This document shows, one piece after another, positions 3,685 to 22,825 of a stretch of DNA of 31,069 nucleotides. The position numbers and the translations under genes are program-made. Under the pieces are notes generated by a model, which saw only the letters and a list, made by a program, of their open reading frames with translations, made no database searches and was not told where the DNA came from. Source of the DNA: Candidatus Thorarchaeota archaeon (GTDB lineage: Archaea > Asgardarchaeota > Thorarchaeia > Thorarchaeales > Thorarchaeaceae); assembly GCA_038893995.1 (NCBI GenBank), contig JAWAQK010000028.1, positions 1 to 31,069 on the forward strand, read 5' to 3'. Position 1 is the first letter of the stretch; each line of letters begins with the position of its first letter.

Positions 3685-3791
3685 GCCTCGGTAGATTAGC
3701 TGGGAGATCGCGCGGCTGAAGACCGCGTTGTCGCTGGTTCGCAAGTGACGTTTCTATGTCACTCGGCCAAGAAGTCCGGCCCGAGGCACCA
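3685..3791 (+). tRNA. tRNA-Phe(GAA) with a 31-nt non-canonical T-loop intron at 56/57 (3741-3771); CCA encoded
   Basis: Acceptor GCCTCGG/CCGAGGC-A-CCA; anticodon arm CGCGG-CT-GAA-GA-CCGCG; T-stem GCTGG/CCGGC. Removing 3741-3771 restores the loop TTCAAGT. Splice motif: helix TGGT/GCCA with bulges TCG and AGA. Confidence 0.92.
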
Positions 3792-4359: not shown

Positions 4360-6301
4360 TGTCTGACGACTCCGTGTCTACCCACTTGAACTTACGCTGA
4401 AGTGTCTTGGAATACACCTTGTGCCAGTCAAGATCAACCTTCTGACACCAGTTCCAGACTAGTTTCGGATGTATGTAGGACTTTAAGGAGGTGGTCAGGT
4501 TCCATGTTCGGGTGGCCTTAGCAAGTTCGTAGTCAGTCTGGATCTTAGACTTCATCTCCTCCGCCCTGCGGAGGGCTTCTTCTGCTCTGCCTAGTGCGCT
4601 CTCTGCTCGACTCAGCTGCCTAGAGAATGTCCGCTCGAGTGAGGCAAGACGTGACCTTTTCTTGTGGAGTGTTGATTGCTCACGCTCAAGACGTTTCTGC
4701 ACATACTCGAGCGCTGAAGCATCACCAACCTGAGACGACGACTGGACCCTCGATTGGCGGGGAGGGGTTTGTCTCTCATTTGGAGGATACTTGTCATTGC
4801 CAGTAAGGTTCTGAATAGTTTGTTCGTACTGCGCGATCAGCTCTTCCTGCCTTGCGATGGTCTCTCTCAGATCTCCAATCCTACGCTCATGCTTCTTCCT
4901 CAGGCTGCGGACCTTGTCACGCTGCTTGTCTACATTCTTTCTTGCGGCCTCAATTTTGCTCTCAGCCACTCTCAATCGACTCTCGAATCTACGTTCTGAT
5001 TTCTCCCAGTTCTTGGGAGCCTGCTTTGTATGGTTCATCACTCGCGCAACCTCGAGGTTCGCACGTTTGACTGCCTCCATCTTGACGAACTCGGGATCGC
5101 TCCTCTTGACTCGGCTCTTCGCAAGCTCGTTCTTCATGGTCATTGAGGCATGGTATGTCCTGAAGACCTTGGCAGTCAGTTCCGGATGGACCTCTGCCAG
5201 GAAGCGATTCACATGACTGCTTCCAATATCGGGAAAGATCTGGGCTATCTTCTTTGGGTCTCCCCTTGTCTTGCCCTGCCTCCGGGCGGCAAACAGTTTC
5301 ATCCGTTCGCTTGCTGCCTCGTACAGCTCCTTGAAGACGGAATAGACATCAGGAGGCATCTCAAGTTCCTTGTGCCACGGGACACTGTCCTTGCCCAAGA
5401 AGTCGAATACGACAGAGGAGTCCTTCAAGGTCAGATGCTCAACTCTCAGAGTAGTGGCACCTACCGTGTCAGCCTCGTCGGGGTCCTTCTCGTCACCCAC
5501 TCTGAGACTCAGTCTGTCAATCAAGTAGCATGCTGCCGCAACCATTCGCCGTCTTGGGTCCTTGGATCTCAGACCATCCAGGATATGCCTGCGAATCTCA
5601 TCGATTCGCCGTCCTATCTTGAGCGCCTTGTCGAACTTCGCCTCCTCACGCTCCTGCTTAATGGGAGTACTATCATGCAACCATATGTACTTCAAGTTCC
5701 CAGTCAGTCGATCAGTCCACCGGGCAATCCACATACATTCGGGACTCCATACTATCTCCTTCCAGTCACCTGACGGTCGTGGTGCGTCAGGACTGAGATT
5801 CAGTGTGATGTCAGAATGTTGAACCGGATACTTCCACTTACCACGCAGCGGATGCTGCCCTCGTCCCATGAATATTCCCGCAGGCTCCGTCTGATAGTTT
5901 GCCAGCTCCATGCGGACGCCATCGACCAAAGCATATCCGTAGATTTCTTTCAGTCTACTCCGTTCAGCCTTTCTTCGTTCGAGGTCTGCTCTCTTCTCTT
6001 GAGTACTCATCGCATCCTTTGCTGTTCGCTCAGACTGGACAAAGTTGATCACTTCTGAGAAGTCGATCTCCTCTGGCTTTAGGGACGGACGGACTCCTAG
6101 CTCTCTGCTGAAGTCCTCAAAGAAGTTGGACCTGAAGACGGGGTCCTCGACATAGGGCGTACCAAGTTTCTTGACCCATGCTACAGCCATTGCCTCCTGC
6201 ATCTGATTCAGCAGATGTGTTTCCCCTCGCACGTTGATTCTCAGACCATGAGGCGGGGGGAGACCCAACACTATTATGCCATTGTGATGCAGACTCTTCA
6301 T
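4328..6301 (-). CDS. DNA topoisomerase IB (eukaryote-like, with N-terminal cap and long linker)
   Basis: Catalytic residues in SLRVGDEKD, FDFLGKDSV, AKVFRTYHAS, MNH and TSLKSYIHP (Tyr); GRGQHPLRGKWK motif. Confidence 0.95.
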   Translation of the reverse strand: MKSLHHNGIIVLGLPPPHGLRINVRGETHLLNQMQEAMAVAWVKKLGTPYVEDPVFRSNFFEDFSRELGVRPSLKPEEIDFSEVINFVQSERTAKDAMSTQEKRADLERRKAERSRLKEIYGYALVDGVRMELANYQTEPAGIFMGRGQHPLRGKWKYPVQHSDITLNLSPDAPRPSGDWKEIVWSPECMWIARWTDRLTGNLKYIWLHDSTPIKQEREEAKFDKALKIGRRIDEIRRHILDGLRSKDPRRRMVAAACYLIDRLSLRVGDEKDPDEADTVGATTLRVEHLTLKDSSVVFDFLGKDSVPWHKELEMPPDVYSVFKELYEAASERMKLFAARRQGKTRGDPKKIAQIFPDIGSSHVNRFLAEVHPELTAKVFRTYHASMTMKNELAKSRVKRSDPEFVKMEAVKRANLEVARVMNHTKQAPKNWEKSERRFESRLRVAESKIEAARKNVDKQRDKVRSLRKKHERRIGDLRETIARQEELIAQYEQTIQNLTGNDKYPPNERQTPPRQSRVQSSSQVGDASALEYVQKRLEREQSTLHKKRSRLASLERTFSRQLSRAESALGRAEEALRRAEEMKSKIQTDYELAKATRTWNLTTSLKSYIHPKLVWNWCQKVDLDWHKVYSKTLQRKFKWVDTESSDISGEVAESPE

Positions 6302-19321: not shown

Positions 19322-19662
19322 CAGTACCCAAATCGGTGGAGCACGTGGGGCAGTCGGGGATAGAGTTGCCGAGATGCCATTCGGGGAGTTCAGGGAACTC
19401 GCATCCTGTGAGGTCATGTTGAAACTAGTTGGATCTCAAACATGATGGAACCGGGAGATTTCTGTGCCTCACACGTGCCAGGGACCGTCGGTCCTGCCGC
19501 TACAGAACACCATTCTCTGACGTCATGGAATTTGTTTCTCTAAGCAATTATCCACTCGGGGGACATTACAGGCATCGAAGAACATACGGATGAATGTCCG
19601 TGATCTCTGCGAGCACGTCCAACCGCAGTAGGTGCCGCTCCTGGCGGGGATCACGACACTTG

Positions 19663-19674
19663 GAAAGCTTTATG
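19663..19674 (+). promoter_or_regulatory. BRE/TATA promoter of tRNA-Arg
   Basis: GAAAGCTTTATG about 30 nt upstream of tRNA position 1. Confidence 0.65.
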
Positions 19675-19699: not shown

Positions 19700-19859
19700 G
19701 GGCCCGTTGCCCAGCCCGGACTCCTTAGCAATACGCTTGGGAGGAATTGATAGGGCGCCAGCCTTCTAAGGGCCGTGTGGGCACGTAGACAGTTGGAGGT
19801 CGCGCGTTCGAGCGGTTTGAGGACTTCCCTCACCGGGACAGATCGCGCCGGGCCCGCCA
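19700..19859 (+). tRNA. tRNA-Arg(TCT) with three introns: D-loop (about 19720-19749, 30 nt), canonical 37/38 (19769-19790, 22 nt) and T-loop 58/59 (19812-19841, 30 nt); CCA encoded
   Basis: Spliced sequence GGGCCCG-TT-GCCC-AGCCCGGATA-GGGC-G-CCAGC-CT-TCT-AA-GTTGG-AGGTC-GCGCG-TTCGAAT-CGCGC-CGGGCCC-G-CCA forms a complete cloverleaf; upstream TATA box. Confidence 0.9.
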
Positions 19860-22722: not shown

Positions 22723-22825
22723 GCCTCGGTGGCCCAGTGGTCAAGGCGTCCGCCTCGTATATCATGGTCAAGATGATGGCCGAGACAGCGGAAGGTCGGG
22801 GGTTCAAATCCCCCCCGGGGCTCCA
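22723..22825 (+). tRNA. tRNA-Thr(CGT) with a 27-nt canonical intron (22760-22786); CCA encoded
   Basis: GCCTCGG/CCGGGGC-T-CCA; TCCGC-CT-CGT-A^A-GCGGA; splice helix CTCG/CGAG with 3' bulge ACA; GGGGG-TTCAAAT-CCCCC. Confidence 0.95.

Follow-up and report, generated by a model that had tools for sequence, protein, structure and literature searches.

The window analysed here, a whole stretch of 31,069 nucleotides from a Candidatus Thorarchaeota archaeon, contained a real tRNA-Arg(UCU) gene at positions 19700-19859 of the plus strand, which was made up of four exons and three inserts. Very probably it was the single functional Arg-UCU gene of its host, with its own promoter and with three BHB-type introns that would be cut by an (alpha-beta)2 EndA before RtcB ligates the exons into a tRNA reading AGA. 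The window corresponded to contig C28 of a 2.33-Mb assembly that was 91% complete, and its ribosomal L10 matched a Thorarchaeota record. The gene and its upstream region had the following parts.

19662-19674, plus strand: predicted archaeal promoter, from sequence and conservation, with a BRE-like GGAAAG (19662-19667) and a TATA-like TTTATG (19669-19674)
19700-19719, plus strand: exon 1, tRNA positions 1-19 (acceptor 5' strand, D-stem 5' strand and D-loop to G19)
19720-19749, plus strand: intron 1, 30 nt, in the D-loop at 19/20 (after G19), with a strong hairpin h' and a weak central helix GCCC/GAAT (2/4)
19750-19768, plus strand: exon 2, A20 to A37, with the anticodon UCU at 19765-19767
19769-19790, plus strand: intron 2, 22 nt, at the canonical 37/38 site (after A37), with the central helix CTTC/GTAG (3/4), a relaxed motif
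19791-19811, plus strand: exon 3, A38 to A58
19812-19841, plus strand: intron 3, 30 nt, in the T-loop at 58/59 (after A58), with the central helix GTTC/GGAC (4/4) and h' CGG/CCG, of the HBh' form
19842-19859, plus strand: exon 4, A59 to A76, with the discriminator G73 and an encoded CCA

Removal of all three inserts produced a 78-nt cloverleaf with 21 of 21 stem pairs (one of them G-U), the encoded CCA and the conserved U8, G18-G19, U33 and TTCRA. ARAGORN recognised this product as tRNA-Arg(tct); neither the unspliced precursor nor any partly spliced form received an Arg call. Moreover, a multi-intron scan with an intron-allowing profile, trained on the other tRNAs of the same genome, found the gene unaided with a score of 57 and 21/21 stem pairs, and the maxima in the reversed genome were a score of 28.8 and 17 pairs. 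With cheaper intron costs the same scan gave many false matches (null scores up to 38.6), and its output at that setting was treated as leads only. The boundary of intron 1 at 19/20 was set by the orthologues without direct-repeat ambiguity. Thus, the three introns (30, 22 and 30 nt), the paired cloverleaf and the CCA described in the earlier note were confirmed. The same note suggested that standard scanners may miss the gene, and indeed both ARAGORN and Rfam missed the unspliced form when the window and the genome were searched, and ARAGORN with a lowered threshold returned only noise.

The promoter GGAAAG-C-TTTATG was located at -38 to -26 of the gene. GGAAAG-TTTATGAC was invariant among five aligned orthologues, and the promoter element was also present upstream of many others. 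The proposal of a BRE/TATA promoter ahead of the gene was thus borne out by sequence and conservation, and the element probably functions as such. The gene was placed after the L11-L1-L10-P1 ribosomal protein genes and converged on a B12/radical-SAM gene. Two other tRNA genes with introns were noted in the window. A second cryptic gene, tRNA-Phe(GAA) at 3685-3791 (plus strand), was also unseen by ARAGORN and Rfam; it had one T-loop intron of 31 nt at 56/57 (about 3741-3771) with a fully paired central helix TGGT/GCCA (4/4). The tRNA-Thr(CGU) gene at 22723-22825 (plus strand) had a canonical 37/38 intron of 27 nt (22760-22786) and stood head-on to a minus-strand tRNA-Leu(GAG).

A pattern search of the 91%-complete assembly found one Arg-UCU match and no other tRNA-Arg(UCU). 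Separate Arg genes with the anticodons CCU, CCG, GCG and UCG were present in a scan of the same genome; a Thr-UGU gene was likewise not found in the 91%-complete assembly. AGA was common in the window, as had been claimed, accounting for 24% of Arg codons in its ORFs and for 25% genome-wide (10,684 codons, present in 1383 of 1391 long ORFs). Since this was the only UCU decoder found in the assembly, the gene is probably essential, which supported the earlier suggestion to that effect. Provided that the unassembled DNA holds no second copy, translation in the cell would depend on splicing of this gene. The 78-nt product had A20, C35 and U36, which are the usual identity elements for arginine.

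About 70 relatives possessed an orthologue of this gene with zero to three inserts, mostly at the same sites. Of the 87 genomes in the order, 68 matched the exon-2 pattern, and all 63 automatically parsed orthologous loci encoded the same 78-nt product. Six of these loci had no insert, 31 had the D-loop insert only, 14 the anticodon insert only, nine the D-loop and anticodon inserts, one the anticodon and T-loop inserts, and two all three. About ten more loci were outside the automatic parsing, and none of them was triple by eye. The two triple-intron alleles belonged to the host and to a genome from another genus (G013), and the six intron-free alleles showed the identical 78-nt layout at the orthologous site. 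The radical-SAM neighbour was common to 37 of the 44 loci tested. It was very improbable that the host locus is a pseudogene and that the unassembled DNA carries an intron-free Arg-UCU gene instead. The incompleteness of the assembly (91%) leaves room for such a gene, but the exons were undecayed (21/21 pairs), the promoter was conserved, and the locus was the family-wide syntenic orthologue of a gene present in a single copy in most relatives.

Several relatives had unusual Arg-UCU sequences. U33 is near-universal in tRNAs; in all four g11 genomes (L027, L029 and L030 from G024, G010 and G033; also G067) the syntenic Arg-UCU had C33 in the anticodon loop CCUCUAA, and the pattern matched no version with U33 in these genomes. 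The cell could tolerate this C33 or edit it, or the anticodon could be read in a shifted register (CUA). G014 had several partial Arg-UCU copies about 5 kb apart, on C64 (L020, L042) and C87 (L097), one ending in the T-arm; integration of elements at the Arg-UCU tRNA, with duplication of the attachment site, would give such a picture. In G077 (L067, L068), two extra diverged intron-free tRNA-like copies with the UCU anticodon were found beside the orthologue, and they were possibly carried by mobile elements.

The introns at the same sites in G013 provided insights into the origin of the inserts. Its D-loop intron had the same length and position as that of the host, was identical at 18 of 30 positions (p 0.0001) and showed compensatory changes in the hairpin. 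Its T-loop intron was also equal in length and position, with 14 of 30 identical positions (p 0.012), and its central helix used GAAT, also paired 4/4. Across the family, the D-loop introns at 19/20 were 27-32 nt long. The alternative origin, by recent transposition of copies of other tRNA introns in the genome as in Thermoproteales, concerned the source of the introns only and not the function of the gene. In its favour, intron lengths in the host peaked sharply, with 28 of the 45 introns of the automated table at 29-31 nt and the T-loop introns mostly 30 or 31 nt long; the other Arg tRNAs of the genome, moreover, have a GTTT D-loop with which the 3' end of the D-loop intron would form four of four pairs. 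A fixed-length route of gain or a constraint on length may lie behind the peak. On the other hand, none of the three introns resembled others in the genome beyond shuffled sequences (p 0.32, 0.42 and 0.32), and the matches to another genus pointed to vertical inheritance. Recent copying within the genome was therefore largely refuted, and we consider such an origin improbable; a transposition long ago may have happened. Since the D-loop and T-loop introns matched the same-site introns of G013 and did not resemble other introns of the genome, they were most likely inherited rather than recently copied.

For the splice motifs, the central helices were defined by placing the cut behind the second base in every 3-nt bulge. 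The T-loop intron had four of four central pairs, bulges GAG and AGA, and three closing base pairs in h'. The helix, bulges and closing pairs were thus as claimed earlier; however, the motif was HBh' and not the full hBHBh', because C52 and U60 are mismatched and the exon-side helix is not adjacent. At 37/38, the central helix had a U34-U mismatch and the anticodon stem served as the outer helix, which made this motif relaxed rather than strict. The D-loop intron reached two of four central pairs in its best register and was thus no strict 4-bp BHB, being lower than even the relaxed class (3/4) of a preprint on Asgard tRNA introns (10.64898/2026.10.13.758758). No better central helix was found in the alternative registers (18/19, 20/20a and a length of 31 nt). 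It kept the BHB spacing exactly (hairpin, 4 nt, 3-nt bulge), and its hairpin, at -10.9 kcal/mol, was matched by 0.6% of shuffles. Because the spacing and the h' hairpin were kept and the introns at the homologous site had 3-4/4 pairs, the D-loop intron was considered BHB-like, and it may work like a BHB intron although it is not a strict one. ViennaRNA pair probabilities were about zero for all three central helices, the 4/4 one included, and, as the calculation had no positive control, they were taken as uninformative. In the family as a whole, 40 distinct D-loop introns had a mean of 3.32 central pairs, compared with 2.85 when hosts were permuted and 1.51 when introns were shuffled, an excess that was read as a trend without a p-value since the kin are not independent.

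Two further readings concerned the weak D-loop helix. It was conceivable, though rather unlikely, that EndA cuts this intron by reading the geometry of the D-stem and the intron hairpin and not a paired helix. If true, the geometry-read motif would be less strict than the BHB and BHL substrates on which (alpha-beta)2 enzymes have been tested, and such reading would be closer to the structure-measuring mode of the eukaryotic TSEN. A still less probable reading was that the anticodon and T-loop introns are spliced, and the D-loop insert is poorly removed or retained, so that the tRNA carries an additional hairpin in its D-loop or little of it matures. Accordant with retention, the two triple-intron alleles (host and G013) were the only ones among 42 D-loop introns with a 2/4 central helix, as compared with 3-4/4 in the other 40, and many D-arm inserts in Asgard genomes lacked the canonical motif (10.64898/2026.10.13.758758). 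However, the exact BHB spacing was kept, the h' hairpin was held by compensatory changes between two genera, and motifs with 2/4 pairs also occurred at canonical 37/38 sites in relatives (G019). Moreover, a retained hairpin would part G19 from the arginine identity element A20 in the sole AGA decoder found.

The host genome encoded two EndA paralogues, on contigs C15 and C39, as well as RtcB. The best PDB match of the C15 protein was the alpha subunit of the Aeropyrum pernix EndA (3P1Z, E 7.6e-44), and its K47, R49, Y130, H138, R162, K169 and W189 corresponded to K44, R46, Y125, H133, R157, K164 and W183 of the latter. Thus, by alignment to A. pernix, the Tyr/His/Lys triad and the CSL lysine were present, which classified the enzyme as the (alpha-beta)2 type with the CSL/L1 loop. 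The named close homologues of this alpha subunit were nearly all from Candidatus Thorarchaeota, at about 70% identity, which together with the L10 match pointed to a host in Thorarchaeia (Asgard). The C39 paralogue was without the catalytic His and the loop and gave weak matches to beta-subunit models; it would be a non-catalytic beta subunit, as its missing His and loop fit. Judging by these sequences, the host EndA probably assembles into a heterotetramer with a broad substrate range. In A. pernix, the CSL and K44 give EndA the ability to cleave D-loop and BHL introns (PMC3241643). The earlier note had deduced an EndA of relaxed specificity in this lineage. The type and the CSL lysine agreed with this, but novelty did not follow, as Asgard archaea had already been reported to possess this (alpha-beta)2 type and its L1 loop (PMC5829648). 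Since the CSL/L1 loop motif was present in 28 of 29 relatives, it was a family trait and not special to the triple-intron gene; several relatives had an intron-free Arg-UCU gene despite the family-wide loop.

The preferred reading, a single functional gene with three spliced introns, can be described by the following route. Its own BRE/TATA promoter would give a precursor of about 160 nt. The (alpha-beta)2 EndA with the CSL/L1 loop would cut after the second nucleotide of the 3-nt bulges at three BHB-type junctions, namely the strong HBh' of the T-loop, the 3/4 motif of the 37/38 site and the D-loop motif, which is very relaxed (2/4). The encoded RtcB would then join the exons, and the 78-nt product would be charged with arginine and read AGA. 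Because the D- and T-loops form the tRNA elbow, the L-shape probably cannot form until both of these introns are out. The introns themselves look like neutral passengers, which a small number of permissive sites may have acquired and lost again.

Other tRNA genes of the host also contained several introns. Among 45 tRNA genes counted, 12 had no intron, 17 had one, 13 had two, two had three and one had four, or about 1.2 introns per gene. The triple-intron genes were Arg-UCU and iMet (C5:46092-46264, minus strand), the four-intron gene was tRNA-Asn(GUU) (C37:2931-3123, plus strand), and the iMet and Asn genes both spliced to tRNAs recognised by ARAGORN. The elongator tRNA-Met gene (C39:2290-2459, plus strand) had a D-loop intron and, at 37/38, an unusually long insert of 62 nt, roughly double the common length, which was possibly a nested intron. 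The tRNA-Arg(CCG) and tRNA-Arg(GCG) genes (C19:5562-5699 and 6131-6268, plus strand) had near-identical exons and D-loop introns (one difference) and unrelated 37/38 introns; their likeness was suggestive of duplication or gene conversion.

Triple-intron tRNAs had been described in the earlier note as rare and best known from Thermoproteales. This was not supported, given the iMet and Asn genes of the host and the published Asgard genes with three to five introns. In three complete Asgard genomes, introns occurred in 92-95% of tRNA genes, with several in more than half (PMC11291895), and Supplementary Data 4 of that paper contained many three- and four-intron genes, including a four-intron Arg-TCT in Freyarchaeia. 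A survey of 90 Asgard genomes reported genes with as many as five inserts, of which those in the D-arm were systematically missed and had weaker motifs; it also described repeated gains and found (alpha-beta)2 EndA to be widespread, and its main text did not name Thorarchaeia (10.64898/2026.10.13.758758). As in the multi-intron genes of Atabeyarchaeia and Freyarchaeia (PMC11291895) and of this survey, the host had short BHB-type introns in the D-arm, anticodon loop and T-arm that were missed by annotators, together with weak D-arm motifs, (alpha-beta)2 EndA and patchy gain and loss. It differed in the number of introns per gene (about 1.2 versus 2.2 in the focal families of the preprint) and in the peak of intron lengths (29-31 nt, where the Asgard census has a median of 22-23 nt). 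The Thermoproteales tRNAs, which reach three introns (PMC4033280), shared with the host this upper number, the use of canonical and non-canonical sites and an (alpha-beta)2 EndA with the CSL. However, they belong to another phylum, and the three introns of the host showed no sign of copying between tRNA types. The A. pernix (alpha-beta)2 EndA (PDB 3P1Z, 3AJV; PMC3241643) had equivalents of its K44/R46 CSL, triad and Trp183 in the host alpha subunit, whereas the 2/4 central helix of the host D-loop intron was less strict than those of the BHB and BHL substrates given to that enzyme.

Accordingly, the triple-intron Arg-UCU gene belongs to the described Asgard class with up to five introns and reveals no new mechanism. 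It fills an annotation gap, since ARAGORN and Rfam alone would leave this genome seemingly without an AGA decoder. The range of the Asgard EndA was listed as unmeasured (10.64898/2026.10.13.758758), and the alleles of one orthologous gene with zero to three introns, together with the weak D-loop motif, make a handy substrate set for it. Finally, the gene extends the known Asgard pattern of multi-intron tRNAs to Thorarchaeia.
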